Source: Laetmonice hystrix
Lineage: Eukaryota
Direction: 5' to 3'
DNA length: 64,000 nucleotides
Assembly: GCA_965235115.1 (NCBI GenBank)
Contig: OZ249436.1
Coordinates: 3,722,001 to 3,786,000, forward strand
Shown here: positions 32,501 through 53,996 of the stretch, one piece after another
How positions within the stretch are numbered: position 1 is the stretch's first letter
Layout: the number at the start of each line of letters is the position of its first letter
The notes under the pieces: model-generated
What the model saw: only the letters and a program-made list of their open reading frames with translations
Told to the model about the DNA's origin: nothing
Databases searched by the model: none
Made by a program: the position numbers and the translations under genes

Positions 32501-35187
32501 GTTTGTAATTAGAGCAAATATGTAACGTTATCCATCCCTTATACTGGAAGACATAATACTTGAAATTGGAAATACTTTTTTTTAAATGTTAGTCTTATTG
32601 AGTTAACTATTCGTAACTGCTGCCAGTTTCAGCCCGCGTAGTGTCGTCATTGAAACCAAGAATTGTCCTATGCTGTGCTGTGGAAGGATATAAAACCGAG
32701 GGCCTGAAAAGTATTGTTCTTTCCTTGCAGCAAATCAAACGTTCACAGATTAGAAAAGGTATGGTGATGGTGTCTCCACGGCTGGAACCAAAGGCATGCT
32801 GGGAGTTCGAGGGAGAAATCCTTGTTCTTCATCATCCTACCACAATAAGCTGCAAATACCAGGCCATGGGTGAGTACCAGGCCATGGGTGAGTGTACCAG
32901 GCCATGGGTGAGTGTACCAGGCCATGGGTGAGTGTACCAGGCCATGGGTGAGTGTACCAGGCCATGGGTGAGTGTACCAGGCCATGGGTGAGTGTACCAG
33001 GCCATGGGTGAGTGTACCGGGCCATGGGTGAGTGTACCGGGCCATGGGTGAGTGTACCGGGCCATGGGTGAGTGTACCGGGCCATGGGTGAGTGTACCGG
33101 GCCGTGGGTGAGTGTACCGGGCCGTGGGTGAGTGTACCAGGCCGTGGGTGAGTGTACCAGGCCGTGGGTGAGTGTACCAGGTCGTGGGTGAGTGTACCAG
33201 GCCGTGGGTGAGTGTACCAGGCCGTGGGTGAGTGTACCAGGCCGTGGGTGAGTGTACCAGGCCATGGGTGAGTGTACCAGGTCGTGGGTGAGTGTACCAG
33301 GCCGTGGGTGAGTACCAGGCCATGGGTGAGTACCAGGCCATGGGTGAGTGTACCAGGTCGTGGGTGAGTGTACCAGGCCATGGGTGAGTACCAGGCCATG
33401 GGTGAGTACCAGGCCATGGGTGAGTGTACCAGGCCATGGGTGAGTACCAGGTCGTGGGTGAGTGTACTAGGCCGTGGGTGAGTGTACCGGGCCATGGGTG
33501 AGTACCAGGCCATGGGTGAGTGTACCAGGCCATGGGTGAGTACCAGGCCATGGGTAAGTGTACCAGGTCGTGAGTGAGTGTACCAGGCCATGGGTGAGTG
33601 TACCAGGCCATGGGTGAGTACCAGGCCATGGGTGAGTGTACCAGGCCATGGGTGAGTGTACCAGGCCATGGGTGAGTGTACCAGGCCGTGGGTGACTACC
33701 AGGCCATGGGTGAGTACCAGGCCATGGGTGAGTGTACCAGGCCATGGGTGAGTGTACCAGGCCATGGGTGAGTGTACCAGGTCGTGCGTGAGTGTACCAG
33801 GTCGTGGGTGAGTGTACCGGGCCGTGGGTGAGTGTACCAGGCCATGGGTGAGTGCACGGGGCCGCGGGTGAGTGCACGGGGCCGCGGGTGAGTGCACGGG
33901 GCCGCGGGTGAGTGTACCAGGCCATGGGTGAGTGTACCAGGCCATGGGTGAGTGTACCAGGCCGTGGGTGAGTGTACCAGGCCATGGGTGAGTGTACCTG
34001 GCCGTGGGTGAGTGTACCAGGCCATGGGTGAGTGTACCAGGCCGTGGGTGAGTGTACCGGGCCATGGGTGAGTGTACCGGGCCATGGGTGAGTGTACCGG
34101 GCCATGGGTGAGTGTACCAGGCCGCGGGTGAGTGCATGGGGCCAGGGGTTTGTGCACCGGGCCGCGGGTGAGAGTACCGGGCCGCAGGTGAGTGTACCGG
34201 GCCGCGGGTGAGTGCACGGGGCCGCGGGTGAGTGCACGGGGCCGCGGGTGAGTGCACGGGGCCGCGGGTGAGTGTACCAGGCCATGGGTGAGTGTACCAG
34301 GCCGTGGGTGAGCATACCAGGCCGTGGGTGAGCGTACCAGGCCGTGGGTGAGCGTACCAGGCCGTGGGTGAGCGTACCAGGCCGTGGGTGAGCGTACCAG
34401 GCCGTGGGTGAGCGTACCAGGCCGTGGGTGAGTGTACCAGGCCGTGGGTGAGTGTTACTCCACCATAAGACACCAGGTGGCGTGGTGGGGGAAAACATCA
34501 ACACCTGTTGTAAATGTGCTCCACTAGGTGGCGCACCACGGGGACCCCAGGCACCGTAACAAAGGGGACATGTATCGGCCTGGAAAGTGTTACGTTAATA
34601 ACAGTACGGTTAATGAGAAATTCTAGAATTCAAGTGGTTTAATGTTGTTGTCATGTCAGGAATTCAAGAAAGCTCTTGCTGTGTTTGGATTTAATACGTA
34701 AGTATTATATATGAAATTCTAATGCAGCCAAACACACTAATATGAGTATATTATTGTTGCATTATTTTTATATGTCGTGAATACCTTTTTGATTTCAGTG
34801 CATGTAGGAAGTGTGAGGCAGACAGCATCCATCCTCTCCATGTCACAAGAACACCTCAGAACTGGCGACAAAGCCCAGGTCCGATTCCGCTTCATTAAAA
34901 ACCCTGAGTACCTCCGCACGGACATGCGCATGGTCTTCCGTGAAGGTCGCACAAAAGCTGTTGGAAACATTAGCAGATTATTTCCACACGTCAGTGCAAC
35001 TGCCCAGAACACCAGGCAGCAGAGGGCAGCAAAAAAGGCAGCAGAATCACACCATCAGTTGAAACCACAAAATGAGCCGCAGAAACCAAGTAAAAAGAAC
35101 CGGAGAAGTCGAGGCCGGGGGTATAATCCAACAGACGAGGCGCCGGGGAAAGAAAACAAGGAAATAGCCACAACATCTACAACTTGA
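29363..35187 (+). CDS. GTPBP1: GTP-binding protein 1 (translational GTPase, eEF1A/SelB-related); 9 coding exons, 1890 nt, 629 aa
   Basis: Exons 29363-29524, 29807-29915, 30188-30368, 30552-30894, 31186-31424, 31676-31820, 32318-32500, 32731-32869, 34799-35187 join via GT..AG introns with consistent phases. G1 GNVDAGKS, G3 DLAG, G4 [35 protein letters not shown] matches GTPBP1 rather than GTPBP2 as I recall the family. Confidence 0.95.
29807..29915 (+). CDS. GTPBP1: GTPBP1 coding exon 2 ([19 protein letters not shown])
   Basis: Acceptor ttttcag|, donor |gtaag, phase 0 to 1. Too short for the ORF track; translated by hand. Confidence 0.88.
30188..30368 (+). CDS. GTPBP1: GTPBP1 coding exon 3 (..[15 protein letters not shown])
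   Basis: Acceptor catcag|, donor |gtcagc, phase 1 to 2. Confidence 0.9.
30373..30466. repeat. 11-bp minisatellite in GTPBP1 intron 3
   Basis: CATCTGTTAC(A/G) x ~8.5, starting just after the donor. Confidence 0.9.
30552..30894 (+). CDS. GTPBP1: GTPBP1 coding exon 4 (P-loop, switch regions)
   Basis: [27 protein letters not shown]; ttgcag| and |gtgaga. Confidence 0.96.
31186..31424 (+). CDS. GTPBP1: GTPBP1 coding exon 5 (TKID motif)
   Basis: [15 protein letters not shown]..; tgcag| and |gtgagt. Confidence 0.95.
31676..31820 (+). CDS. GTPBP1: GTPBP1 coding exon 6
   Basis: [26 protein letters not shown]; tgcag| and |gtgagt. Confidence 0.95.
32107..32353. repeat. 60-bp tandem repeat spanning the intron 6 / exon 7 acceptor
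   Basis: Four near-identical units, each with atttcag|GGTGTGGGAAC. Confidence 0.95.
32318..32500 (+). CDS. GTPBP1: GTPBP1 coding exon 7 (domain II)
   Basis: [25 protein letters not shown]; uses the last of four duplicated acceptors. Confidence 0.93.
32731..32869 (+). CDS. GTPBP1: GTPBP1 coding exon 8
   Basis: [24 protein letters not shown]; ttgcag| and the first G|gtgagt donor, phase 1. Confidence 0.92.
32857..34454. repeat. 18/20-bp minisatellite built from the exon 8 donor site (~80 units)
   Basis: TACCAGGCCATGG|GTGAG(TG) repeated. Confidence 0.96.
34799..35187 (+). CDS. GTPBP1: GTPBP1 last coding exon (domain III and basic tail)
   Basis: tttcag| then (V)[26 protein letters not shown]; stop TGA. 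Confidence 0.93.
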
Positions 35188-35626: not shown

Positions 35627-36472
35627 AGACAGACAGACAAGCTCCTACACAGCTGGTGGGCCCTCATGCCTGTTACTCCAGGTGACAGACAGACAAGCTC
35701 CTACACAGCTGGTGGGCCCTCATGCCTGTTACCCCGGGTGACAGACAGACAAGCTCCTACACAGCTCGTGGGCCTTCATGCCTGTTACCCCGGGTGACAG
35801 AGAGACAAGCTCCTACACAGCTGGTGGGCCTTCATGCCTGTTACTCCAGGTGACAGACAGACAAGCTCCTACACAGCTGGTGGGCCTTCATGTCTGTTAC
35901 CCCGGGTGACAGACAGACAAGCTCCTACACAGCTGGTGGGCCTTCATGCCTGTTACCCCAGGTGACAGACAGACAAGCTCCTACACAGCTGGTGGGCCTT
36001 CATGCCTGTTACCCCGGGTGACAGAGAGACAAGCTCCTACACAGCTGGTGGGCCTTCATGCCTGTTACCCCGGGTGACAGAGAGACAAGCTCCTACACAG
36101 CTGGTGGGCCTTCATGCCTGTTACTCCAGGTGACAGGGAGACAAGCTCCTACACAGCTAGTGGGCCTTCATGCCTGTTACCCCAGGTGACAGACAGACAA
36201 GCTCCTACACAGCTGGTGGGCCTTCATGCCTGTTACCCCAGGTGACAGGGAGACAAGCTCCTACACAGCTGGTGGGCCCTCATGCCTGTTACCCCGGGTG
36301 ACAGGGAGACAAGCTCCTACACAGCTGGTGGGCCTTCATGCCTGTTACCCCAGGTGACAGGGAGACAAGCTCCTACACAGCTGGTGGGCCCTCATGCCTG
36401 TTACCCCGGGTGACAGGGAGACAAGCTCCTACACAGCTGGTGGGCCTTCATGTCTGTTACTCCAGGTGACAG
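35627..36472. repeat. 56-bp minisatellite (~15 units), probably in the GTPBP1 3' UTR
   Basis: GTGACAGACAGACAAGCTCCTACACAGCTGGTGGGCCTTCATGCCTGTTACCCCGG. Confidence 0.95.
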
Positions 36473-38684: not shown

Positions 38685-38731
38685 GGGGTCGATATTATAC
38701 GGTATCGTGGAGAGAGATAAACTGCAAGTAT

Positions 38732-38769
38732 CGAATCTCTTGAGACAGAGTGTGGCCCTGACAAGGGCC
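38732..38769 (-). terminator. Histone-type 3' stem-loop and HDE-like element, copy 1
   Basis: Sense strand ACAC-GGCCCT TGTC AGGGCC-ACACTCTGTCTC-AAGAGATTCG; hairpin 38754-38769, 30 nt after the stop. Confidence 0.7.
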
Positions 38770-38799
38770 GTGTAGGTTTGTGTGAGAGAATGGTTCTCT

Positions 38800-39120
38800 T
38801 CACTGGTGCTGGTCGCCATCATCCTCGCACACCTCCTCCCAGTCGACCTGAAACTCCTCCATGAGGCGGTCCTCCATATCGTCCAGGAGGTCGGCACGGC
38901 TGTTGGCGTACTCCCAGAACATGTTCCTCACTCCCTCCAGGGTGACCAGACGGAGCCGGTGTTGGTAGCGGAAGGTTCGGCGGTTCTTGCGGAGGGCACG
39001 GTCGTGTTTGGTCCTCATGTCCCTGATACGGTTGTTGAGGAGATTGACTTGCTGACAGGCCCTCTTGAACTTGCGGTCCATCTGGCGCATCTCTGAGATG
39101 AGTCTTTGAACTGGAGCCAT
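38800..39120 (-). CDS. Small intronless helical protein, family copy 1 (106 aa, unknown function)
   Basis: ATG..TGA ORF MAPVQRLISEMRQMDRKF..LEGVRNMFWEYA..DQHQ, conserved across 6 paralogues; TATATAA ~80 nt upstream; 3' hairpin. Confidence 0.85.
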   Translation of the reverse strand: MAPVQRLISEMRQMDRKFKRACQQVNLLNNRIRDMRTKHDRALRKNRRTFRYQHRLRLVTLEGVRNMFWEYANSRADLLDDMEDRLMEEFQVDWEEVCEDDGDQHQ

Positions 39121-39331
39121 GACTGTAGTCAGTTATGGTGGGGGAATGGTTGCAAGGTGAAGGCTGAACGAAGTGTGTTTCCAAGTAATCGTAGTGTCGG
39201 TTATATACGGTGGGAAAGACAGCGTGGAAGTGAGTGTTGATAACAAGAGGCGTTTGTGAGGTGCGCCATGGAGTGCTAACGCTGACCTAGTCACTCAGCT
39301 CTGACACCTGACAAAGGTGTCAGACCGATTG

Positions 39332-39502
39332 CAGGCACGTACCCAGGATTGTGCTTAGGGGGGGGGGGGGTTCCATCAGGACAAGAGGGCTGCCCGGGGG
39401 CTACCTGTGTTTTTGCACCAGTCGACCTGGGGACCGGAGGGGGCCGGGGGGGGGGGGGGGGGTCCGGAACCCCTGGAACCCCCCCCCCTGGGTACGTGCC
39501 TG
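39332..39502. mobile_element. MITE in the copy 1 promoter
   Basis: TIR CAGGCACGTACCCAGG / CCTGGGTACGTGCCTG; GATTG on both sides; sits between two copies of a ~75-bp promoter segment. Confidence 0.85.
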
Positions 39503-40698
39503 GATTGTGAGGTGCGCCATGGAGTGCTAACGCTGACCTAGTTACTCAGCTCTGACACCTGACAAAGGTGTCAGACCGTGCACGCCTAGCCCTGAGATCA
39601 AGGGCGCTTCTTTCTAACACGTGACGTGAAGTCATTAGCAGGTAGCCGTCCTGTAGCAAGAGCATGACCAATTCAACGTGTTTTTATATAATGGACGTCA
39701 ATCCTGATGGAATCTGCCTGAATTCCTCTTAGTTTAGTTTATTTTAGGTCTCCCTCCATAAGAGGGCGCCTCGGTATTTCAATTCGAAAGATGTGACTGT
39801 AATGGCTTTACCGCTGGTGTAGTTCATACTAGCCCCGTAAGAGGGCGCCTAGGCATGTAATGGACGTCAAGGCTGACTCAATTCCTCCCTGTTCCTTCTA
39901 CTTATTACTCCCATCATAAATTGTCGGCTCAGTATTGATGGTGTTGAAATCAGTGAGCGTAATCCCCCTATATAGGCCTACCCGCCGTTTAATTCATGCC
40001 CCCTCCGTTAGACGGCACTGAAGTATCTGGCCATGCAGTCGCCGTGTTGCTTGGCGTATGATGACTGCTGTGTTGTAACTCAGCTCTTTCTGCCTTTGAT
40101 ATGGTTACATTTCATTCATGCGATTACAGGCCTTTTCTTTGACATAATATGATTTCAAATTCAAAATCATATGGATACTGTTGATTCTGTGGGCATTTTA
40201 ATGTTTCTCGTTGGAATGTATGTTTCCACCGTCCCCGAGTTAAAAAAGAATTATAGTTTAGCTGCGATATACATGTGCATCTATAGACGTAGCCTATACT
40301 AGGTTGTGTGCACAGAAAACAGCCGGCAACAATGCGTGGAAAAAGACTAGAAGCTGTTCAAGAATAGGAAAAGTGGATAAGGGAGGTTGATGCATGACGA
40401 AAGAAAGCAGTCAATTCTGAACGGTTTTCTGTTCAAGATACTTCATATTTCATATGAATATTTGGAGATTGTAAAATATCTGGCGGATTTGCTTGTAAAT
40501 GTAGGAATTTTTATATAGGCCTAGGCAGGATGTAAAATTCCTTCCTCAATCATTTCAGGAAGACCTGCCTCTCTATCCACATAGGTTACAAAACAATGAT
40601 TCATTGAAGAACTTAGAAAGGGCTTGATATAGGGTCAAGGTAGACGGCTGGCAAAACATATTATTCTAAGGGTTTAGGTAGAATTATACAACGAATAT

Positions 40699-40736
40699 CG
40701 ACTCTATTGAGACAGAGTGTGGCCCTGACAAGGGCC
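40699..40736 (-). terminator. Histone-type 3' stem-loop and HDE-like element, copy 2
   Basis: Same hairpin at 40721-40736, then ACACTCTGTCTC-AATAGAGTCG. Confidence 0.7.
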
Positions 40737-40766
40737 GTGTAGGTTTGTGTGAGAGAATGGTTCTCT

Positions 40767-41087
40767 TCACTGGTGCTGGTCGTCATCATCCTCGCACACC
40801 TCCTCCCAGTCGACCTGAAACTCCTCCATGAGGCGATCCTGCATATCGTCCAGGAGGTCGGCACGGCTGTTGGCGTACTCCCAGAACATGTTCCTCACTC
40901 CCTCCAGGGTGATCAGACGGAGACGGTGTTGGTAGCGGAAGGTTCGGCGGTTGTTGCGGAGGGCACGGTCGTGTTTGGTCCTCGTGTCCCTGATACGGTT
41001 GTTGAGGAGATTGACTTGCTGACAGGCCCTCCTGAATTTGCGGTCCATCTGGCGCATCTCTGAGATGAGGTCTTGCGCTGACGTCAT
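40767..41087 (-). CDS. Small intronless protein, family copy 2 (106 aa)
   Basis: MTSAQDLISEMRQMDRKF..; TATATAA on - at 41164-41170; 3' hairpin 40721-40736. Confidence 0.85.
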   Translation of the reverse strand: MTSAQDLISEMRQMDRKFRRACQQVNLLNNRIRDTRTKHDRALRNNRRTFRYQHRLRLITLEGVRNMFWEYANSRADLLDDMQDRLMEEFQVDWEEVCEDDDDQHQ

Positions 41088-42455
41088 TGTGCTATAAGAC
41101 TGGTTGTGATGTTTACCGGGTGAATAGCGAGCGAAGTCTGCTCTCCAGGCATGTCCGTATTAGTTATATATGCTAGGTCGAACTTAGCGTGGAGAGTTTA
41201 ATGAGCGATGATGCTGACACGGCCTCCTGCCCAGTACGTGGTCGTGCCACATCTCGCGAATTACTCAAGTAAACAGTTTGACATGTAGTCATAAAATTAC
41301 TCAAGTAAACAGCTTGACATGTAGTCATAAGTCTGGAACTCAAATCAGTGACATGGCGACATGGCGCTTCAAGGATTACGTAATACCAAATGAAGCCTAT
41401 TTACTGCCCATCCCACCCCTCGATCGTGCCAAGAGCCCTGCCCCGTGACACCCCCCCCCCCCCGCGTACCCAGCCGTGGCGTTACGTGTGTAGGACACCT
41501 TATCAATTAGTACTGAGTTGGTAAACACATGATCAGGGAGATGTGTTAACACCACGCCTGCTGCCCTGGACCTCTCATTGCGGCCAGCCGCTTCGATTAG
41601 GAATAGATTAATTATGTTGATAGTCCTCGAGCCACAATATCCAATCTTTGTTCACAAGGCATTTTATATATCCCCAGGTTGATCAACGCACTGAAATAGA
41701 AATGTTTGTGGTGTGGTTTTGATATAAAAATCATACTTCGGCACCACGTAAAGGGGGGAATAATATATGTCACTATGATATATTCCTTTATCATCAGCAT
41801 ATTATTTTGACCTTTGTTCATATCTGCTGTCCGTTTTTGTCTCACCCTAAATCTATTTTAATCAATAAACATTTAAAAGGCCTCTTTCTACATCTCCTGG
41901 CAGACTAACCTATTTACAAATTAGGCCTGATCAGGCTCGTGTTGGGTGGGGCGGCGGGGGTGTGGGTGGGGGTGTGGGTGGGGGTGTGGGGTGGGGTTCC
42001 GGACCTCCTGCCCCCCCCCCGAGAATAGTTTTTTTTTCTCTTATATTCAACGGAATAACATCGAACGAGCAAGTGCGAAGCATTCCCGCCGTTTTGAACC
42101 CGTTGAGAGATAAATCCACAAAATATAACGCCCTAAAATGGCCCACAAATTGCAGGAAATCGCGTCTCACAGCTTCTACTTTTTAAAAATATCCCGAGGA
42201 CCCACCCGCTGAAAATCCTGGACACGCGCCTTCTGATAGTGGTCGATTTCTTTCACATTTCCTTAAGTTTTACTCTACGCCAGTGAGACGTATAAAATGC
42301 TTACTTAAAATGGTTACTTCTTTAAATCGCTCCTTTTTAAAATTAATATTACACCGCGTTCTGGGATCGTTGGTGCGATAAAGCCAACAGTTATAGGGCT
42401 TCAGAACACAAGTGTTGGAAGGCGGAGATCTCTTAGTACGCGTTGTATTGACAGG

Positions 42456-42855
42456 CAGGGGCGCCGGAAGCAAATTATTATTGGGGGGGCAAGAGAGCTG
42501 AAGCGAAAGTCATAGGCTACAACATGCTTAGTAAAGCAGGATCGGAGGCCCTCCCCAAGAAAATTTTAAAAACTACACACCTTAAAACGCTTTTCTACGC
42601 CATTTTGAGGCAGGATTTTTTATGTTTTGAAGGCGTAAATGAATAAATTACAATGTATCAATGTATCATTAGGACAATCTACCCAGTCTTTGACGCGACC
42701 AAGTCATGGTTTCAACAGGCCTACTGTATGTGGAAAAACCTGACTTTTTTTCATTCATGATCACAGATTATTGGGGGGGCGATGCCCCCCCCCCCCAACC
42801 AGATTATCGAGGGGCGGTCGCCCCCCCCCCTGCCCCCCCGCTTCTGGCGCCTATG
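42456..42855. mobile_element. hAT-like MITE
   Basis: CAGGGGCGCCGGAAGC..GCTTCTGGCGCCTATG termini, 8-bp TSD TTGACAGG. Confidence 0.85.
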
Positions 42856-42902
42856 TTGACAGGACCTTTAGTTGTGAGAACTGACACTACCTGGTTTAGT
42901 TA

Positions 42903-43138
42903 CGTTATCGTAACAGTTATCTCTGGAACTGATTCGGCAGTCAACTCCTAGTATATCAACCTGACGCAGCGTTGAATTCAGCAATACAACACAAGTCAAA
43001 GGTCAACATGTGAGTGATCGTTATCGTAACAGTTATCTCTGGAACTGATTGGGCAGTCAACTCCTAGTATATCAACCTGACGTAACGTTGAATTCAGCAA
43101 TACAACACAAGTCAACGGTCAATCAACATGTGAGTGAC
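42903..43138. repeat. ~116-bp direct duplication
   Basis: cgttatcgtaacagttatctctgg..aacatgtgagtga occurs twice. Confidence 0.85.
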
Positions 43139-43729
43139 GGTTTCCGAAAAAAAAGTAGGCCTACCGTCGAGTCAAAGGTGACCCAACTTCATTAAAAAGG
43201 TGGTTTCACAGATGTTGCTTTAACGTATAATGCCGTCAAGGCTCTTTTTTGAATTTCTGAATTTGAATTTAGAAGGCCAAAAAACTTCTCGCTATTTCCC
43301 GGCATCTGAAGTGATGTGAAGTTCACAAAGCATTAAGGGCTATAGCCTACCAATAATTTTTGTCATTTCTTAAAAAAAGGCGACCCGCGCCTGGCATTTA
43401 GGCCTACTCACACATATTATAGGCCTAGGCCTAATTGTTTGGGCAAATGATTACCCGAACATGCTATTTCGACTCCAAAAATATTTTACGCACGTTCTCC
43501 CCAGATTAGCCCCAAAATGAAAAGCGCACGGCGCTGCATCTGGAAGAGGTTTCATCTAGTTCACCTCGTCGGTGATACCGGTAGGCCTTCTTCTGGGCAA
43601 TGTGACAAAGGGGGAAAAGTTTAAAATAATTGAGGGACTATTTCTCTGGTCGTCCCTGGAGCCCCCCCCCCCCCCCCGCCCCACGGAGAAGGGAGTGTTG
43701 ACAGTCATCTTACCCAAACAGACATTTTC

Positions 43730-44408
43730 TTATAGACACCTTCCCGTCAGCAGCCCTTGTAGGCCTAATACTGCTGCCTGTACATGTATACTCTGAGAAA
43801 CGACACTAGGCCTAGAGACACCTTCCCGTCAGCAGCACTAGTAGGCCTAATACTGCTGCCTGTACATGTACTCTGGGAAACGACAGTATAGACATCTTCC
43901 CGTCAGCAGCCCTAGTAGGCCTAATACTGCTGCCTGTACATGTATACTGAGAAACAACACTATAGACACCTTCCCGTCCGCAGCCCTAGTAGGCCTAATA
44001 CTGCTGCCTGTACATGTACTCTGAGAAACGACAGTATAGACACCTTCCCGTCAGCAGCCCTGGTAGGCCTAATACTGCTGCCTGTACATGTAGGCCTATA
44101 CTGAGAAACAACACTATAGACACCTTCCCGTCCGCAGCCCTAGTAGGCCTAATACTGCTGCCTGTACATGTAGGCCTATACTGAGAAACAACACTATAGA
44201 AACCTTCCCGTCCGCAGCCCTAGTAGGCCTAATACTGCTGCCTGTACATGTATACTGAGAAACAACACTATAGACACCTTCCCGTCCGCAGCCCTAGTAG
44301 GCCTAATACTGCTGCCTGCACATGTATACTGAGAAACAACACTATAGACACCTTCCCGTCCGCAGCCCTAGTAGGCCTAATAGTACTCTGAGAAACGACA
44401 CTACAGAC
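43730..44408. repeat. ~70-80-bp minisatellite (~9 units)
   Basis: tatagacaccttcccgtc(a/c)gcagccctagtaggcctaatactgctgcctgtacatg.. repeated. Confidence 0.9.
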
Positions 44409-44738
44409 AGGTTATGTTTAATCTCGTTGCTCAGAGCAATGTGAGTTCATGCCCGTCATTGATTAGGCCACGTACGGTTAGTCTGCAAGAATTTTTACAA
44501 CTCTTCTTATATCGTAAAGTGACACGTCTTCAGGGTTGGTTAAAATTTTGATTTGGGGATTATCCTGAGAAATATTTTAACTGCTAATCGAAGCGCCTTC
44601 CTCAAGTGACAGGTTCCGGACCCCCGACTGGGCGCCGTGTTACACGGCTCGTACGTGGGGTGGTGGAGTGGGGTGGGGTGGGGTGAAGTGCTGGGGTCGG
44701 GTGGGGTGGGGTGGAGTGGGGGGGGGGGGCTGTCAACA

Positions 44739-44927
44739 GGCTACATTTGGTGTTACGTAATCCTCGGGGCGCTATATCGTCACTGAGCCACGTTACAACT
44801 TTATGACCACATGTCAAAGTGTTACACTTGATTAGTTCGCGAGATGTGCCAAGACCACGTGATGGGCGCCGTGTCAGCCTCATCTCTCATTATTCCCTCC
44901 ACGCTAAGTTTCACTTTGCATATATAA
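44739..44927 (+). promoter_or_regulatory. Type-B promoter of copy 3 (homologous to the copy 2 upstream region, 41164-41400 on -)
   Basis: Shared islands TTACGTAATCC, ACATGTCAA, TTCGCGAGATGTG, GCCGTGTCAGC, CTCCACGCTAAGTT and GCATATATAA. Confidence 0.6.
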
Positions 44928-44991
44928 GTAAGACCAAGAGGCCTGGAGAACATACTTCAAGCATACCCGGTAAGGTTCACAGCAAGTCACA

Positions 44992-45309
44992 ATGTCCTCA
45001 GCGCAAGACCTCATCACGGAGATGCGTCAGATGGACCGCAAGTTCAAGAAAGCCTGTCGTCAAATAACTCTCCTCAACTATCAAATCAAAGCAATGAGGA
45101 CACGATACGACCGTGCCGTCAGCAACAACTGCCGCACCTTCCGCTACCAAAACCGGCTCCGTCTGGTCAGCCTGGAGGGAGTGAGGAACATGTTCTGGGA
45201 GTACGCCAACAGCCGTGCCGACCTCCTGGACGATATGCAGGATCGCCTCATGGATCAGTTTCAAGTCGACTGGGACGAGGTGTGTGAGAGCGATGACGAC
45301 CAGAGTTGA
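44992..45309 (+). CDS. Small intronless protein, family copy 3 (105 aa, most divergent)
   Basis: MSSAQDLITEMRQMDRKF..; TATATAA 44921-44927; frame kept despite many substitutions. Confidence 0.85.
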   Translation: MSSAQDLITEMRQMDRKFKKACRQITLLNYQIKAMRTRYDRAVSNNCRTFRYQNRLRLVSLEGVRNMFWEYANSRADLLDDMQDRLMDQFQVDWDEVCESDDDQS

Positions 45310-45345
45310 ATCAGTGAAGAAAGCCATTCTCACAATTGTTTATTT

Positions 45346-45555
45346 ACCAAACGGCCCTTGTCAGGGCCACACTGTGACACCAAACGGCCCTTGTCAGGGC
45401 CACACTGTGACACCAAACGGCCCTTGTCAGGGCCACACTGTGCCACCAAACGGCCCTTGTCAGGGCCACACTGTGACACCAAACGGCCCTTGTCAGGGCC
45501 ACACTGTGACACCAAACGGCCCTTGTCAGGGCCACACTCTGTCTCAGAAGAGTCG
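45346..45555 (+). terminator. Six tandem histone-type stem-loops (33-bp period) with one terminal HDE-like element, copy 3
   Basis: Hairpins start at 45353, 45386, 45419, 45452, 45485 and 45518, each preceded by CCAAAC; only the last is followed by ACACTCTGTCTC-AGAAGAGTCG. Confidence 0.7.
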
Positions 45556-45718
45556 ATACGAACCTATATCTCTCTCAAATCAAATTTATAAGTGTGTATC
45601 CTCTAACCGATCTCATTCATAATGCTAATGAATTATCAGTATAAAAGATGACTATATCAATATTCATATCCTTCCCCTGGTTATTCCCAAATGGTAAGTC
45701 CCAGATAAATTTGGGGTA

Positions 45719-46042
45719 TTAAGGGTCAGGGATAGGGATAGGGATAGGGATATTCTGTCTTTGGGAGGTGTAGGGACCGAGGTTAGGAGTTAGGAATAAG
45801 GTAAGGGCTATGGATCTTTACTTACGATAAATTTTCGTGGCTTTGAAGTTACCACGGGGGATAGATAGGGGTCTATCTATAGAGTCTAACCTTCCCCTTA
45901 ATATCTGGCAATTTGTCAAGCACCTTAAGGAAGTACAAAAAGAGCAGTTCTTAAAGGCACACATGGAATAGCCTATCCCTAACCCCTAACCCCAGTCCCT
46001 ACACCTCCCAAAAACATATCCCTAACCTATCCCTGACCTTAA
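45719..46042. mobile_element. Foldback MITE-like element with (T)AGGG-rich arms
   Basis: TTAAGGGTCAGGGATAGG..TTGGGAGGTGTAGGGAC mirrored by GTCCCTACACCTCCCAA..CCTATCCCTGACCTTAA. Confidence 0.65.
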
Positions 46043-46552
46043 CCCAAACCCCTTCCCAAAAACTTTGTGGGAAAGTTATCATAGGGGTAGTCTATGGGTA
46101 AAATTTGACACGATCGACACGCCGACACGGCCGTAAAATGAAGGGCGACATTGCGACACCCTCTTCTTAATGTGCGACGGACACAGCTCCCAAATGGCTG
46201 ATAAAATTCGACGTGAGACATCCAGAATAATCAATAGTGAGACACACTGATTTAATTAACAGGTGACACACGACATCGACAATTATTAAATAGCGACGTG
46301 CGACATAGGCCTACAGTAGAAGCGACATAGATCTACCATATCCATCTAGGCCTAAATCTCTTACACTTTTACAGTCTTAGTCTTACACTGGAGCCAGTCT
46401 TAGTCTTAGACTGGAGTTTAAAAAGTGACACACGACATGATTGAATCGTTTTAAAAAGTGGCATGGGACATGGACAAATTTCTTATCATGTGACACTGGG
46501 ACACAGGCATAAAAAATAGGACCCATATATACCCTTATCATAGGGGAATAAC

Positions 46553-46967
46553 CGTAAGACTACCCTGAATATGAAATCATATACCGGAGACATCGAGCTG
46601 ACAGACGTCTTGTCATGGCAGTAAGACAATCCTGAATATGAAATCATATACCGGAGACATCGAGCTGACAGACGTCTTGTCATGGCAGTAAGACGACCCT
46701 GAATATGAAATCATATACCGGAGACATCGAGCTGACAGACGTCTTGTCATGGCAGTAAGTAAGACAACCCTGAATATGAAATCATATACCGGAGACATCG
46801 AGCTGACAGACGTCTTGTCATGGCAGTAAGTAAGAAAATCCTGAATATGAAATCATATACCGGAGACATCGAGCTGACAGACGTCTTGTCATGGCAGTAA
46901 GACGACCCTGAATATGAAATCATATACCGGAGACATAGAGCTGACAGACGTCTTGTCATGGCAGTAA
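46553..46967. repeat. 67-71-bp minisatellite (6 units)
   Basis: ctgaatatgaaatcatataccggagacatcgagctgacagacgtcttgtcatggcagtaag repeated. Confidence 0.92.
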
Positions 46968-47038
46968 AAGAAAGACTGTTTCGGTGCTCACCGTTTCATT
47001 CTAACTTGGCGCCATATTCTGATAAAAGCAGGCTATCT

Positions 47039-47206
47039 GGCCCCAGTTTCAAGAAAGTGGTTAAGTTAACTAAGTTGGTTAAGATGAATTTTAACCAGAA
47101 CTTAACCAATCAGGAAGCAGAGAATTGACCAATTTTGGTTAAAGTCAGAGTTAACCACGATTTTAACCAACTTAGTTAACTTAACCACTTTCTTGACACC
47201 GGGGCT
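47039..47206. mobile_element. Palindromic MITE (Harbinger-like)
   Basis: GCCCCAGTTTCAAGAAAGTGGTTAAGTTAACTAAGTTGGTTAA mirrored at the right end. Confidence 0.8.
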
Positions 47207-47740
47207 GGCCGTCCCATGATTCCCCGCAACGATGTGTAACTGTGTGTTTATTGCGTCCGCCAACATATTAAATAGAGAACACGGACTAACTTCCCATCCC
47301 TGCTACATGCCGCAGGGTAAAATCTACTCGACCAAGTCTGCCATGTCAAAGTGGGGCTTGTTGGGAACAGTTGACTTGTGACGAGAAATGACGATAACCT
47401 TGCCCCCTTTGTTTATCAATCAATTTCTACGAAAGAGCGCATCACCAAAACAGCAAAAGAAAGCATTTTGTTACTTTCTACCGAATGCCTCTTTATAAAA
47501 TATCCATTTAATACCCTTATCTCTTATTCACGTATCTATTTATCCATTTATTTCATTCGGTCTTGTTTGGCGCACTGTAGTGAGGTATTTCCCAAGCCAG
47601 ACTATCGTCGATATGCCCATAGCGTTATCACATTTGAGGGCGATGGAGGGTTTCAAAATACATTTAAAAAAAGAATATGTAGACTCAATTGCTACGTCAT
47701 AACTTCACACTATGAATCTGTGACGTGCCATAAAAATATA

Positions 47741-47839
47741 TTTCAGGGGTCACGCTGGGTCACCAAACTTAGATATATGACAATTTTCCTGAAATTCTCA
47801 TATATGATTAGAGTTTGGTGACCCAGCGTGACCCCTGAA
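47741..47839. repeat. Short perfect-armed palindrome (MITE remnant)
   Basis: TTTCAGGGGTCACGCTGGGTCACCAAACT / AGTTTGGTGACCCAGCGTGACCCCTGAAA. Confidence 0.8.
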
Positions 47840-48019
47840 AACAATTGTAGGAGAACTTTCTCCTAGTCATGGATAGTCCATGAGGAGAAGAGTCCCTGGG
47901 GACCATTCATTAGTCCCCCTGCCCCGTAGATTCGAATCGGATCCTATTTCCTGAATAAGATCCTGACTTGGCGAATCGTGTACCGTGTACCAGATGCTAA
48001 CTTCACACTGCTGCTACAG

Positions 48020-48145
48020 CATCTGACACATTTGTCAGGTGTCAACTGAGCGACTAGCTCAGAGTGAGCACCCTTTATCGCACCTCACGACCGCCTCTTG
48101 CCATCAACACTCACCTCCACACTGATTCTTTCCCACCATATATTA
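48020..48145 (+). promoter_or_regulatory. Type-A promoter of copy 4 (also copies 1, 5, 6)
   Basis: CTGACAC-N9-GTGTCA inverted repeat, GCACCTCAC, CAACACTCAC and TATA are shared with the diverged copy 1 upstream region. Confidence 0.55.
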
Positions 48146-48222
48146 CGGGCACCAGCATTACTTGGAAACAATCATCGTTAAGCCTTCAGCTTGCAACAAT
48201 TCCCTCAGAATATTTTACAGTC

Positions 48223-48543
48223 ATGGCTCCAGTTCAAAGACTCATCTCAGAGATGCGCCAGATGGACCGCAAGTTCAAGGTGGCCTGTCAGCAAGTCAAT
48301 CTCCTCAACAAACGTATCAAGGAAATGAGGACCAAACACGACCGTACCGTCCGCAAGAACCGCCGCTCCTTCCGCTACCACAACCGGCTCCGTCTGGTCA
48401 CCCTGGAGGGAGTGAGGAACATGTTCTGGGAGTACGCCAACAGCCGTGCCGACCTCCTGGACGATATGGAGGACCGCCTCATGGAGGAGTTTCAGGTCGA
48501 CTGGGAGGAGGTGTGCGAGGGTGAGGACGACCAGCACCAGTGA
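48223..48543 (+). CDS. Small intronless protein, family copy 4 (106 aa)
   Basis: ATG at 48223 aligns with the paralogue starts (the ORF-track extension to 48064 starts at GTG and runs through the promoter); TATATTA 48139-48145. Confidence 0.85.
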   Translation: MAPVQRLISEMRQMDRKFKVACQQVNLLNKRIKEMRTKHDRTVRKNRRSFRYHNRLRLVTLEGVRNMFWEYANSRADLLDDMEDRLMEEFQVDWEEVCEGEDDQHQ

Positions 48544-48573
48544 AGAGAACCATTCTCTCACACAAACCTACAC

Positions 48574-48611
48574 GGCCCTTGTCAGGGCCACACTCTATCT
48601 CAAAAGAATCG
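48574..48611 (+). terminator. Histone-type 3' stem-loop and HDE-like element, copy 4
   Basis: Hairpin 48574-48589, then ACACTCTATCTC-AAAAGAATCG. Confidence 0.7.
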
Positions 48612-49654
48612 ATGATTGCTAAATAGGCGATAGCAAATACCTTAGAGTGATATGTTTTGATTCCTGTCTTTGGTGACTCTTCTCAGCTCCCTTTTAGTTC
48701 CACAACGAACCATTCTTTGTAATCCATGTGGAAACAAAACGATGTCGGCCGAGAATGATTAAAAAAGAATTTCATATCGTGCCTCTATAACAGTTAAATG
48801 GCATGCTAGTTATATTGCAAGATCCCTGTACTCCGATATAATTAAATACTTTGAAAAGAAGATAGTAAAAAGTAACCAACTTCGTATCAATTTCTGTATT
48901 CATGCCTCCCTCTATGTGTCCCCTTTTCTATTCTTGCACAGTTTCTAGTGCTTTGCCACGCATTGTTGCCTGGCTTTTCTCTTTGCAGGCGGCCTATAGA
49001 CACGAACACATTAATAATGTTCACAAATTCAACAGTATCCATACGATATTGAATCTATATCATATTATAATCCTAATGAAAAGCAAGGTTAAGACAATGA
49101 ATGAAATATAACACATTCGTAGGAAGACAGCTAGAGCTGAGCTTTTAGGCGGGGGTAATACGCTGAGTTGATCGAGCACGGCATGGTCAGGTACTTTGGC
49201 GCCCTCTATCGGAAGGGGCGTAAACTAAAACGATGGTCGCGGAATTTGGCTCACTATGAACACGGTGGCGACCTCTTACGGAGGGAGTTACTAAGTAGAA
49301 TGAAGTCACAAGACGTGGGGCTGAACGAATTAACGCCATGAGATAAAAAGACAGTGATGTAATTATCCGATTGGGCGAGAACTGCTACCAGCTTCTAATG
49401 ACTTCACGCCAAATTCGAAAATAGGCGGCCATGCTGGCAGGGCTACAGCGTCTAACACATTTGTCAGGTGTCAACTGAGCGACTAGCTCAGAGTGAGCAC
49501 CCTTTATCGCACCTCACGACCGCCTCTTACCATCAACACTCACCTCCACACTGATTCTTTCCCACCATATATTACGGGCACCAGCATTACTTGGAAACAA
49601 TCATCGTTAAGCCTTCAGCTTGCAACAATTCCCTGAGAATATTTTACTACAGTC

Positions 49655-49975
49655 ATGGCTCCAGTTGATAAACTTATCTCTGAGATGCGCCAGATGGACC
49701 GCAAGTTCAAGGTGGCCTGTCAGCAAGTCAATCTCCTCAACAACCGTATCAGGGACACGAGGACCAAACACGACCGTGCCGTCCGCAAGAACCGCCGCTC
49801 CTTCCGCTACCACAACCGGCTCCGGCTGATCACCCTGGAGGGAGTGAGGAACATGTTCTGGGAGTACGCCAACAGCCGTGCCGACCTCCTTGACGATATG
49901 GAGGACCGCCTCATGGAGGAGTTTCAGGTCGACTGGGAGGAGGTGTGCGAGGGTGAGGACGACCAGCACCAGTGA
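49655..49975 (+). CDS. Small intronless protein, family copy 5 (106 aa)
   Basis: MAPVDKLISEMRQMDRKF..; tandem duplicate of copy 4 at a 1432 bp offset. Confidence 0.85.
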   Translation: MAPVDKLISEMRQMDRKFKVACQQVNLLNNRIRDTRTKHDRAVRKNRRSFRYHNRLRLITLEGVRNMFWEYANSRADLLDDMEDRLMEEFQVDWEEVCEGEDDQHQ

Positions 49976-50005
49976 AGAGAACCATTCTCTCACACAAACC
50001 TACAC

Positions 50006-50043
50006 GGCCCTTGTCAGGGCCACACTCTGTCTCAAAAGAATCG
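50006..50043 (+). terminator. Histone-type 3' stem-loop and HDE-like element, copy 5
   Basis: Hairpin 50006-50021, then ACACTCTGTCTC-AAAAGAATCG. Confidence 0.7.
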
Positions 50044-50931
50044 AAGATTGCTAAATAGGCGATAGCAAATACCTTAGAGTGATATAATTTGACTCCTGTC
50101 TTTCATGACTCTTTTCAGCTCCCTTTTAGTTTCCCCAATGAACCATCCTTTGTAATCCATGTGGAAACAGAACGAAGTCGTCCGAGAATGATTAAAAAAG
50201 AATTTCATATCGTGCCTCTATAACAGTACATTAAATGGCGTGCCAGTTATATTGCAAGATCCCTGTACTCCGATATAGGCCTAATTAAATACTTTGAAAA
50301 GAAGATAGTAAAAAGTAACCAACTTCGTATCAATTTCTATATTCATGCCTCCCTCTATGTGCCCCCTTTTCTATTCTTGCACAGTTTCTAGTGCTTTGCC
50401 ACGCATTGTTGCCTGGCTTTTCTCTTTGCAGGCGGCCTATAGACACGAACACATTAATAATGTTCACAAATTCAACAGTATCCATACGATATTGAAAGTA
50501 TATCATTATAATCCTAATGAAAAACCAGGTTAAGACAATGAATGAAATATAACACTTTCGTGGGAAGACAGAGCTGAGCTTTTAGGCGGGTGTAATGCGC
50601 CGAGTTGATCGAGCACGGCATGGTCAGGTACTTTGGCGCCCTCTATCGGAAGGGGCGTAAACTAAAACGATGGTCGCAGAATTTGGCTCACTATGAACAC
50701 GGTGGCGACCTCTTACGGAGGGAGTTACTAAGTAGAATGGAGTCACAAGTCGTAGGGCTGAACGAATTAACGCCATGAGATAAAAAGACATCCGATTGGG
50801 CGAGAACTACCGGCTTCTAATGACTTCACGCCAAATTCGAAAATAGGCGGCCACGCTGTCAGGACTACAGCGTCTAACACATTTGTCAGGTGTCAACTGA
50901 GCGACTAGCTCAGAGTGAGCACCCTTTATCG

Positions 50932-51540
50932 TAGCCAAAGAATTCGGCTCTGTGCTCTGTACAGAGCCGAAGATCGCTGTTCAGAATTTCCGAGCGTACC
51001 CGGACAAATCTTCTGTCTGCCATGAAAAGCCCTCCCTTGTCTCTATATGTTGATGAAATAGTGATAAATAAACTCAAAATAACATATCTCTCATATCTGC
51101 AAGCTGGAAAAGCACGATGGGACAAAATAAAGACAGTCACATCTCTCGAACCGAGAAATTTCAATGCTCGTTGAGTGCCGCCATTACCGTCGGAGACACC
51201 CTCCAACGCAGAGCTACTTCCGCTTCGCTTTCGCTTCACACAGTAGTAAGCGAGTCTCTGCGTAGGAGAGTGCGTCGGAGAGATGCATGCTGGGATCAAA
51301 GGCAACATGGCGGCCGGTAAAACGCCGTTATAAACGGGTGATCTGGACATGAATTTGACGTTGTACTATTAAAAACACTGCTTCAGGACCCCACACACCT
51401 ACTGTCGAGATAAATGGATGCCGGTGAGTTGATCAGTGCAAGCGGTGGTGGTCTGGCCTGGGTGTGGTCTGACCCGCCAGGAATTTAAGCCACTGCCTGT
51501 AAGCCTTGCTGGCTCGGCGCATGGCTTACTACGTAGGCTA
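50932..51540. mobile_element. Non-autonomous DNA transposon with 9-bp TSD (Academ-like TAG..CTA ends)
   Basis: TAGCC..GGCTA ends; TSD CCTTTATCG at 50923-50931 and 51541-51549; the empty site is visible in copies 4 and 5. Confidence 0.85.
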
Positions 51541-51694
51541 CCTTTATCGCACCTCACGACCGCCTCTTGCCATCAACACTCACCTCCACACTGATTCTTT
51601 CCCACCATATATTACGGGCACCAGCTTTTCTTGGAAACAATCATCGTTAAGCCTTCAGCTTGCAACAATTCCCTCAGAATATTTTACTACAGTC

Positions 51695-51980
51695 ATGGCT
51701 CCAGTTGATAAACTCATCTCTGAGATGCGCCAGATGGACCGCAAGTTCAAGGTGGCCTGTCAGCAAGTCAATCTCCTCAACAACCGTATCAAGGACATGA
51801 GGACCAAACACGACCGTGCCCTCCGCAACAACCGCCGCACCTTCCGCTAACACAACCGGCTCCGTCTGGTCACCCTGGAGGGAGGGAGGAACATGTTCTG
51901 GGAGTACGCCAACAGCCGTGCTGACCTCCTGGACGATATGCAGGACCGCCTCATGGAGGAGTTTCAGGTCGACTGGGAGG
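51695..51980 (+). pseudogene. Family copy 6, pseudogene
   Basis: TAC>TAA nonsense at 51848-51850; V>G in the invariant LEGVRN; deletion of the C-terminus, stop and 3' hairpin; transposon insertion in the promoter. Confidence 0.85.
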
Positions 51981-52929
51981 GACTGAACCATTCTTTGTAA
52001 TCCATGTGGAAACAGAACGAAGTCGGCCGAGAATGATTAAAGGAGAATTTCGTACCGTGAGTCTATAACAGACCTACATTACATGGAAATATATCAATTA
52101 TATTGCAAGTTCCCTGTGTTATATTGCAAGTTCCCTGTGTTATATTGCAAGTTCCCAGTTATATTGCAAGTTCCCTGTGTTCCGATATAATAGCAACTGT
52201 TCCGCAGGTAGCCTCGCCGTGCCGATTTTACCTCTGGAGGTTATTTTCATTCACATGGAATTTACTAAGTACCCCTTTGACAATTATGAAATAGTAGGCC
52301 TATAGTCTTTAAACTCGTTATTGACATCATGAACAACTGACACGGACATCAAAAAGCACCCTGCCAGGTCAGTGTCACACAGGGCCAATGGGTGTGAATG
52401 TCATCCAAACCAGGCTTTCGACTCAGGCTTAAAGTTTGTCATGTCACCAACTGACCAAAAGTTTGTCATGTCACTTCAACCCCATGCACAGCCAAGAATC
52501 AAAGTATTCTTTTATTCAGTTCTCCCCCTATATGTAAGAATTAAAACCATAATGCATTACACACAGGTACAGTTCAAAACCACAGGTTTTCAGTTGTTAG
52601 ATCTGAATGCACATATTCAGTCAAGTCCATCAATAAAAGTTTATTTGACTGACTTGAGATAATCACGTAGGAACCAAGTTCTGGGACTAGAGTGTCTCAG
52701 GACACTTTTTATTATCATTTGTATCGAGCTGAGAGTAACTAAAAATTCAGAGTACTAAAAAAGGGGAACTGATCCTTGGTCCAAGTCCTATACCGTTCGA
52801 AGATCTGGCGTCTGGAGAACACACGATAACCCATTGAGAGACAACCCAGCCTGCACGCACCACTTAATAAGCGCTGCTGGACGGTGCATTTTCGCTGCCA
52901 GCGCAGCCAGCTGTCAGGAGCTGGTCAGG

Positions 52930-53996
52930 AAACGCTGCTGACCACTGCCTGAGCGACGGATTGAGTGCAGCGCTGGCAGCACACAGTAGCCCCTTAGACA
53001 ACGTTGCCTAACCACTGCTCATGCAGCGTTGCATGAGGCACTGCTCATGCAACGTTGCTGAAGCCCTGCTGACCACCGCCTGAGCGACGCATTGAGTGCA
53101 GCGCTAGCAGCACACAGTAGCCACTCATACAACGTTGCCTAACCACTGCTCATGCAGCGTTGCATGAGGCACTACTCATGCAACGTTGCTGAAGCCCTGC
53201 TGACCACTGCCCGGGCGACGCATTGAGTGCAGCGCTAGCAGCACACAGTAGCCACTCAGACAACGTTGTCTAACCACTGCTCATGCAGCGTTGCATGAGG
53301 CACTACTGATGCAACGTTGCTGAAGCCCTGCTGACCACTGCCTGACCGACGCATTGAGTGCAGCGCTAGCAGCACACAGTAGCCACTCAGACAACGTTGC
53401 CTAACCACTGCTCATGCAGCGTTGCATGAGGCACTACTGATGCAACGTTGCTGAAGCCCTGCTGACCACTGCCTGACCGACGCATTGAGTGCAGCGCTAG
53501 CAGCACACAGTAGCCACTCAGACAACGTTGCCTAACCACTGCTCATGCAGCGTTGCATGGGGCACTACTCATGCAACGTTGCTGAAGCCCTGCTGACCAC
53601 TGCCTGACCAACGCATTCAGAGCAGCGCTAGCAGCACACAGTAGCCACTCAGACAACGTTGCCTAACCACTGCTCATGCAGCGTTGCATGAGGCACTTCT
53701 CATGCAACGTTGCTGAGGCCCTGCTGACCACTGCCGGACCGACGCATTGAGAGCAGCGCTAGCAGCACACAGTAGCCACTCAGACAACGTTGCCTAACCA
53801 CTGCTCATGCAACGTTGCATGAGCCACTTCTCATGCAACGTTACAGAACCGCTGCTCAGACAACGTCGCCCAACTGCTGATCAGGCAACGTTGTTGAAGC
53901 ACTGCTCAGGCAACGTTGCTGAACCGCTGCTCAGCCAACGTTGCTGAACCGCTGCTCAGGCTACGCTGCTGAAGCAGTGATCCTGCAACGTTGCTG
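52930..53996. repeat. 131-bp tandem repeat (~7 units) rich in CAACGTTG palindromes
   Basis: Left subterminal array of the CACTA-like element; decays into short GCAACGTTGCTGA units. Confidence 0.9.

Follow-up and report, generated by a model that had tools for sequence, protein, structure and literature searches.

A histone-type 3' processing signal in an amplified family of intronless non-histone genes of Laetmonice hystrix

The stretch of Laetmonice hystrix DNA considered here (64,000 nucleotides (nt); GenBank assembly GCA_965235115.1, contig OZ249436.1, positions 3,722,001 to 3,786,000, forward strand), hereafter referred to as the window, holds five intact genes (c1 to c5) of a family whose predicted product is not a histone, and each of these genes is followed by a hairpin and a purine-rich downstream element like those found behind the replication-dependent histone genes of the same genome. 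The explanation that we consider likely is that the genes belong to a functional, intronless, TATA-driven non-histone family, known from molluscs and an annelid, whose pre-mRNAs carry a complete histone-type 3' processing signal. Judged from the DNA, it is probable that a second client uses the 3'-end pathway regarded as reserved for histones; known machinery would here serve a new class of client. With less assurance, we lean towards the wider reading that the pathway of SLBP and U7 snRNP (small nuclear ribonucleoprotein) has a second, ancient client class in molluscs and annelids, the mRNAs of which would be made and destroyed with histone mRNAs and the small dipolar helical-hairpin protein of which would be a hitherto unrecognised, replication-coupled or cleavage-stage chromatin-assembly partner.

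Gene copies and 3' signal in the window

The five genes are uninterrupted single-exon open reading frames (ORFs) of 105-106 amino acids (aa), preceded in every case by TATATAA or TATATTA 71-87 nt before the ATG (Table 1). The most diverged of the window copies is c3; a sixth copy, the pseudogene c6, has no hairpin. The 16-nt hairpin GGCCCTTGTCAGGGCC (GGCCCT-TGTC-AGGGCC), with a 6-bp stem of the GGYYYU/ARRRCC type and the 4-nt loop UGUC, occurs at 10 exact sites in the window, compared with 0.04 expected and a maximum of one in 100 shuffles, which rules out a chance palindrome as its origin. In all five intact genes it lies on the sense strand, and the distance from the stop codon to the first hairpin is 30 nt in c1, c2, c4 and c5 and 43 nt in c3. 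ACAC follows directly after the stem, and a CAAAAGA(A/G)TCGAT-like element starts approximately 11-12 nt past the stem in c1 to c5. Similarity between the copies decays directly past the ...TCGAT of this element. The initial annotation of the stretch had described five intact single-exon paralogues with a TATA-like box about 70-90 nt upstream, the same sense-oriented hairpin 30-43 nt past the stop, ACAC and a purine-rich element about 12 nt past the stem, and divergence of the copies soon after that element; this description was confirmed in all its parts.

The 3' flank of c3 contains 5.8 repeats of a 33-nt unit (45346-45538), which yield six identical hairpins with starts at 45353, 45386, 45419, 45452, 45485 and 45518. 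The first five score 18.7 bits each on the Rfam Histone3 model (RF00032), and the downstream element is present only after the sixth and last, so that the c3 mRNA would carry six SLBP sites. Two hairpins in tandem were also found behind the paralogues L091 and L094, and the transcripts of all three genes could thus carry several such sites.

Comparison with the histone genes of the same genome

The window is part of a 627-Mb assembly of 35 contigs, in which the histone genes were located for comparison; these are arranged as repeat units of H3-H4-H2B-H2A on C4 and C20, with H1 arrays apart from them and one H2A.X-like gene (L003). At the curated gathering cut-off of RF00032 (34 bits) the window yielded no Histone3 match, while relaxed thresholds gave full-length matches in all five genes (24.9-29.0 bits, E-values 8e-5 to 3e-3). 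The hairpins of the core-histone genes H3, H4, H2B and H2A of this genome score 25.0-28.6 bits, likewise under the cut-off, and the window hairpins therefore score as genuine core-histone hairpins of the species do.

The downstream element is arguably a more telling match than the hairpin score. Five histone classes carry CAAAAGAGTCGAT or a near variant of it 13-14 nt past the stem. The sequences after the stem are cccacaccttatCAAAAGAGTCGAT in H3, cccacactatctCAAAAGAGTCGAT in H4, cccacaacatcaCAAAAGAATCGAT in H2B, ...tGAAAGATTCGAT in H2A and ...CAGAAGTGTCGAT in H1; the element itself reads CAAAAGAATCGAT in H2B, GAAAGATTCGAT in H2A and CAGAAGTGTCGAT in H1, and the H2A.X-like gene carries AAAAGAGTCGAT. 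The distance of the element from the stem is 12-13 nt in most family members versus 13-14 nt in H3, H4, H2B, H1, H2A and H2A.X. An exact 13-mer is common to c4, the family array on C19 and the H2B element, and an exact 24-mer is common to the paralogues L007 and L012 and to H4. The family signal is in this respect identical with the signal of the species' own histone genes. As the same element stands behind histone and family genes, the U7 of the species should recognise both, an argument that is independent of the U7 sequence.

Table 1. Positions of the family genes and their 3' signals in the window, and RF00032 scores of these signals and of histone hairpins of the same genome
Feature	Position	Strand	Description	RF00032 (bits)
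c1	38800..39120	-	106-aa intact single-exon gene (stop included); TATATAA at 39201-39207, -87 from ATG	
c1 3' signal	38730..38769	-	hairpin 38754-38769, then ACAC..., element CAAGAGATTCGAT 38730-38742	24.9
c2	40767..41087	-	106-aa intact gene; TATATAA at 41164-41170, -83 from ATG	
c2 3' signal	40697..40736	-	hairpin 40721-40736, element CAATAGAGTCGAT 40697-40709	25.7
c3	44992..45309	+	105-aa intact gene; TATATAA at 44921-44927, -71 from ATG	
c3 3' signal	45346..45557	+	six tandem hairpins (45353-45533), then element CAGAAGAGTCGAT 45545-45557	29.0 (last hairpin)
c4	48223..48543	+	106-aa intact gene; TATATTA at 48139-48145, -84 from ATG	
c4 3' signal	48574..48613	+	hairpin 48574-48589, element CAAAAGAATCGAT 48601-48613	26.4
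c5	49655..49975	+	106-aa intact gene; TATATTA at 49568-49574, -87 from ATG	
c5 3' signal	50006..50045	+	hairpin 50006-50021, element CAAAAGAATCGAA 50033-50045	27.9
c6 pseudogene	51695..51982	+	TAA in frame at codon 52; 3' end truncated, similarity lost near codon 96	
H3 hairpin			histone gene of this genome	26.0-28.6
H4 hairpin			histone gene of this genome	26.8-27.9
H2B hairpin			histone gene of this genome	25.0-25.6
H2A hairpin			histone gene of this genome	25.3
H1 hairpin			histone gene of this genome	35.1
H2A.X-like gene (L003) hairpin			histone gene of this genome	39.6

With regard to the organisation of the histone genes, the 7.4-kb core-histone unit (H3, H4, H2B, H2A; L077 = C4:36536000-36544500, and L078) also holds a 5S ribosomal RNA gene (119 bits), and the unit on C4 additionally holds a U2 small nuclear RNA gene (189 bits). 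The H1 genes form separate tandem arrays of 4.1-4.5-kb units on C4 and C20. The loop of the H4 hairpin is CCUC.

The family across the genome

A tblastn search with the c4 protein gave at least 151 matches in the genome. Arrays are located on C1 at 1.03-1.06, 1.57-1.64 and 3.76-3.81 Mb, the last of which runs past the window end: at least 11 further copies lie just beyond it at C1:3788723-3807116, the whole array comprises approximately 17 genes, and the window covers its first part. An array at 12.55-12.64 Mb on C19 consists of head-to-tail units of approximately 1.33 kb, a small array is found on C6, and diverged copies occur on C2, C3, C4, C5, C8, C21 and C30. On C19 and C6 the copies have loops of the canonical kind, UCUC or UUUC, with ACACTCTGTCTCAAAAGAATCGAT following as in the window, and the same loops occur in diverged paralogues; UGUC occurs only in the C1 arrays and is therefore a derived subfamily variant. 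RF00032 scores are 31.3-32.1 bits for the array copies on C19 and 31.3-40.0 bits overall for the paralogues scored elsewhere, with L002 (40.0), L007 (37.4) and L012 (37.4) all above the cut-off. Exact matches to a 30-nt signature, made up of the hairpin and 14 further nt, number 114 in the genome versus none in the control; the 100 matches listed are all on C1, C6 and C19, at or beside family loci and on the strand of the adjacent gene.

Pairwise ratios of nonsynonymous to synonymous substitution rates (dN/dS) were 0.13-0.85 in 20 of 21 pairs and about 0.3-0.7 in most, the remaining pair giving 2.58 at a dS of 0.017. The genes are accordingly constrained, yet fairly fast-evolving.

Among the more degenerate loci, the L064 cluster (C5:36976000-36985999) together with L001, L004-L006, L008-L011 and L013 comprises paralogues of 43-56% identity, a stop codon being present in one match, which still carry hairpins of 37-40 bits. 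Two long ORFs (431 and 549 aa) adjoining the L064-cluster paralogues look like a non-LTR (long terminal repeat) retrotransposon.

A dispersed repeat (L014-L023; e.g. C1:29317073, C2:11955367 and C18:7141281) is present in at least 10 copies on six chromosomes, with at least 2.1 kb shared in six of the nine compared copies and 0.8-1.6 kb in the other three, at approximately 85-95% identity. It includes a tandem repeat with a period of approximately 40 nt, followed by the hairpin GGCCCTTTTCAGGGCC and then by acaaccgatCACAAAAGAAGAGA (35.5-36.9 bits on RF00032), and appears to be a second, unrelated non-histone locus type with a histone-type signal.

Conservation of the signal

Within 160 nt of the stop codon a hairpin was present in 50 of 55 distinct gene-plus-flank sequences (47 perfect stems and three with one mismatch), most of these sequences being near-identical array members and not independent of each other. 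The five exceptions include L039, in which the 5' half of the hairpin is deleted and the ORF kept, and one copy at the end of locus L063 that is not assessable for the hairpin. The informative set consists of 16 diverged paralogues, the proteins of which are 35-75% identical to that of c4; here the hairpin is kept in 13, with unalignable flanks, and nearly all of the 13 have an AAAAG-type element 12-15 nt past the hairpin. Among the 13, three have scores of 37.4-40.0 bits and so exceed the Rfam cut-off. When 15 family hairpins were aligned, pairing held in 84 of 84 stem cells; at two positions of the stem C-G was replaced by U-A on both sides (in three sequences and one sequence, respectively), no pair is broken, and the covariation score was reached by none of 500 shuffles.

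Outside this genome, the metagenome scan found one locus (L088, on a contig of 1641 bp), which encodes a 106-aa homologue of 39% identity with TATATAA at -87. Its hairpin aaaaacGGTTCTtttcAGAACC, followed by AGAAAGAGAAAG, lies 31 nt past the stop and scores 30.6 bits on RF00032; the stem differs from the window stem at two base pairs, both of them compensated. No related loci were found in the collections of genome contigs and of viral contigs. At the protein level, the family profile matched 940 cluster representatives at E <= 0.001, of which 477 also passed E <= 1e-10. The named relatives, all labelled "hypothetical" or "uncharacterized", belong to four bivalves (Mya arenaria, Mactra antiquata, Dreissena polymorpha and Potamilus streckersoni), a limpet (Patella caerulea) and a tubeworm (Lamellibrachia satsuma); none of ten homologue clusters bears a name. 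Four homologues of Mya lie on one 71-Mb contig (locus tags 001624 to 001631), and other assemblies hold family clusters of 102, 22 and 15 members.

Some gene models of homologues read through the stop, with tail peptides (e.g., GPSKGP-TPSQKST, GSFQSH-KSSQK and ALLRA-NISSQK) that back-translate to GGYYYU-NNNN-ARRRCC followed by CAAAAG. Hairpin-like tail peptides gave 32 matches in 24 of 224 distinct tails (approximately 16 independent clusters) versus two in reversed and 0.9 in shuffled tails, and several of these matches are followed by SQK (= CAAAAG). The check for the hairpin in homologues, which the initial annotation had proposed, came out in favour of its reading: the hairpin is present in 13 of the 16 diverged paralogues, in L088 with compensatory changes and, indirectly, in approximately 16 read-through models. 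In the read-through tail of P0227, a Joint Genome Institute (JGI) metagenome protein of 158 aa, the peptide NGPCQGQ back-translates to a hairpin with a UGUC loop, and this loop may also occur in another organism.

The protein

None of the three window proteins searched had a Pfam match above cut-off, histone and linker-histone families included, and none of 43 longer homologues had a Pfam match at E <= 0.001. An AlphaFold2 model from a 108-sequence alignment (mean predicted confidence (pLDDT) 95.4) folds the protein into a hairpin of two long helices (residues 2-45 and 48-90, i.e., 44 and 43 residues) with a short acidic tail; according to this model the fold is not the histone fold. The absence of a Pfam histone match and the two-helix model rule out a histone variant and uphold the earlier view of the protein as a non-histone. 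Charge is distributed unevenly between the halves of the protein, with 18 K/R versus 4 D/E in residues 1-60 and 3 K/R versus 16 D/E in residues 61-106.

Searches aimed at the function of the protein gave coiled-coil noise only (sequence profile search of the PDB), generic hairpins only with no match at E <= 0.001 (Foldseek against the PDB), and unnamed clusters only, with recognition under the reliability mark (ESM Atlas). The window protein has a weak Pfam match to ING (E-value 0.029; 15.3 bits versus a cut-off of 23.9). Like the ING N-terminal domain it is a hairpin of two long helices, and ING3, ING4 and ING5 are ranked 13, 17 and 18 by Foldseek; unlike the ING family, it has no PHD finger, and the best Foldseek rows are RAP, ESCRT-III, BAR and prefoldin. 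As the ING match is below the Pfam threshold, it is no evidence of kinship, and ING is taken as a fold analogue only. Our best guess is that the protein may be a factor associated with chromatin or replication and required, like the histones and together with them, in bursts; an alternative reading of its role is that of a germline-conflict amplicon.

Processing machinery

SLBP binding rests mainly on two uridines of the loop, those at positions 1 and 3, both of which UGUC retains. The RNA-binding domain of SLBP is encoded at one locus of the genome, C5:10.536-10.538 Mb. For U7, a genome scan with RF00066 gave no match at E <= 1, with 65 of approximately 126,000 first-look candidates scored. 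Three pattern scans combined a sequence complementary to the downstream element with a following U7-type Sm site (motif RUUUNUCYNG, as given in the available excerpts of PMC5054213); the first gave no match, the second 61 versus 121 in the control, and the third 110 versus 89. Of 21 inspected candidates, not one matched RF00066 or placed a hairpin directly behind the Sm site; in L085 and L108 the Sm-type motif is perfect and the hairpin weak or distant, and both were rejected as U7.

Proposed mechanism and alternative explanations

From the signal we infer SLBP binding, U7 pairing, the site of cleavage, the lack of poly(A) and replication-coupled or maternal expression. Transcription would start approximately 30 nt past the TATA box, SLBP would bind the 6-bp/4-nt hairpin, and the U7 snRNP would pair with the CAAAAGA(A/G)TCGAT element, as used by the species' own histone genes. 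CPSF73 would then cut a few nucleotides past the stem, leaving a non-polyadenylated mRNA that ends in the hairpin, with its end expected 3-6 nt past the last stem (...AGGGCCACAC). Such an end would place the message under the control of synthesis, translation and decay that applies to histone mRNAs. The proposal of the initial annotation that a non-histone family has co-opted SLBP/U7 processing is supported by the Rfam scores, the shared element and the presence of the hairpin in homologues.

A number of findings weigh against this explanation. The window hairpins, with a G as the second nucleotide of the loop, score below the Rfam cut-off; ACAC comes after the stem in the family versus CCCACA or ACCACA in the histone genes; and the spacer is mostly 1 nt shorter than that of the histone genes. 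ATTAAA occurs 169-263 nt past the c4 and c5 hairpins and 519 nt past that of c2. Neither the RF00066 genome scan nor the pattern scans found a U7 gene. Three of the 16 diverged paralogues are without an intact hairpin (none found in L090 and L099, 5-bp stems only in L092), so that not every member requires the signal. The tandem-array copies are homogenised together, which leaves the diverged paralogues and L088 as the independent cases, and the read-through peptides are evidence by back-translation and not DNA. Finally, no RNA run is listed for this sequence; the three sequencing runs listed (one study, one sample) behave as genomic DNA, with 30 of 30 bins covered, intergenic DNA included, at approximately 35-60x single-copy depth.

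The alternative that survives best, although we regard it as unlikely, is that the hairpin binds SLBP or another factor while the majority of transcripts continue past it to polyadenylation downstream, the hairpin serving as an internal regulatory element or as an alternative end, as in genes of the H2A.X type. The ATTAAA motifs behind c4, c5 and c2 would suit such a use, the G at loop position 2 of the C1 subfamily and the shorter spacer could weaken processing, and the tandem hairpins of c3, L091 and L094 make some hairpins internal regardless; however, no AATAAA is found within 600 nt past any of the five window hairpins, c1 and c3 are also without ATTAAA over this distance, and the conservation of the copies ends directly past the downstream element. 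Moreover, the full element beyond the hairpin is kept in diverged paralogues. U7-guided cleavage is its established role, and we know of no other.

An inert passenger is very unlikely in our judgement. Here, an H4-like histone 3' module would have been captured by an ancestor of the family, amplified and kept alike by concerted evolution without being used, and many copies may be silent. Capture or gene conversion is suggested by the exact 24-nt match of L007 and L012 to the 3' flank of H4, and the 114 identical signatures lie in arrays homogenised as units; L039 keeps its ORF with half of the hairpin lost, and the hairpin is absent from three diverged paralogues. Against this, hairpin and element persist in 13 of 16 paralogues of 35-75% identity on seven chromosomes with unalignable flanks, the stem changes are compensatory with none broken, the homologue of 39% identity from a different organism shows variants of its own in both stem and purine element, and the ORFs are constrained (dN/dS mostly 0.13-0.85).

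That the family is a selfish amplified element, i.e., a mobile or ampliconic unit (e.g., a germline conflict gene) with a histone-like terminator whose protein serves the element and not the host, is likewise very unlikely. In its favour are the extreme amplification (151 matches, with scattered copies besides the arrays on C1, C6 and C19; other assemblies hold clusters of 102, 22 and 15), the fairly fast evolution (dN/dS about 0.3-0.7 in most of 21 pairs) and the canonical hairpin of the second, unrelated dispersed repeat of the genome. Against it, no transposase, integrase, terminal repeats or target-site duplications were seen around the copies, and the head-to-tail arrays resemble histone or 5S arrays and not transposon insertions. 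The reading bears on the role of the protein and can be reconciled with the 3'-end mechanism proposed above.

Neighbouring features in the window

Minisatellite arrays at 36000-36472, 43731-44382, 46554-46967 and 52935-53856 (periods of 56, 74, 67 and 131 nt) occupy spacers between the family genes. Near-perfect long inverted repeats at 47052-47193 and 47731-47845 gave sub-threshold matches to models of microRNAs and small RNAs (mir-3119, 37 bits versus a cut-off of 80; WsnRNA46, 34 versus 65) and are probably palindromes between gene copies that resemble miniature inverted-repeat transposable elements. The longest open frame of the window, at 32743-34497 on the reverse strand (584 aa), has a weak, below-threshold Pfam match to the glycine-rich colicin translocation domain and is probably low-complexity.

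Relation to known systems

Histone mRNAs are described in the literature as unique among cellular mRNAs in ending with a stem-loop rather than with poly(A). No report of a non-histone gene family with the histone stem-loop was found in full-text searches of the literature (subscription-only papers being outside their scope). Transcriptome-wide cross-linking of SLBP in human cells gave histone targets only, as stated in the available excerpts of PMC4604434, and non-histone clients go unmentioned in the excerpts available of a 2026 review of histone gene organisation (PMC13525598) and of a 2026 preprint on how the pathway evolved.

If the proposed explanation is true, a conserved and highly amplified non-histone family bearing the complete signal would establish that the pathway serves more than histones, would provide a natural test case for the features that the signal needs (loop position 2, spacer length, tandem hairpins), and would point to an uncharacterised protein made in step with histones. 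Such genes would be under-represented in RNA sequencing of poly(A)-selected material, a possible reason for the mostly missing annotation of the family.

Genes of the H2A.X type, which have dual ends, resemble the family in that they are not canonical core-histone genes and yet bear the hairpin (39.6 bits in the species' own L003); they differ in that H2A.X is a histone, while the family has no conserved poly(A) signal past its hairpins. From replication-dependent histone genes the family differs in its product, a non-histone predicted to form two long helices, and, in the window subfamily, in the UGUC loop, in ACAC after the stem and in a spacer of mostly 12 versus 13-14 nt. Like those genes, the family is intronless and TATA-driven, with a short 3' untranslated region and tandem arrays of high copy number, and it has the 6-bp GGYYYU/ARRRCC stem, the 4-nt pyrimidine-rich loop and the matching purine-rich element at near-equal distance.

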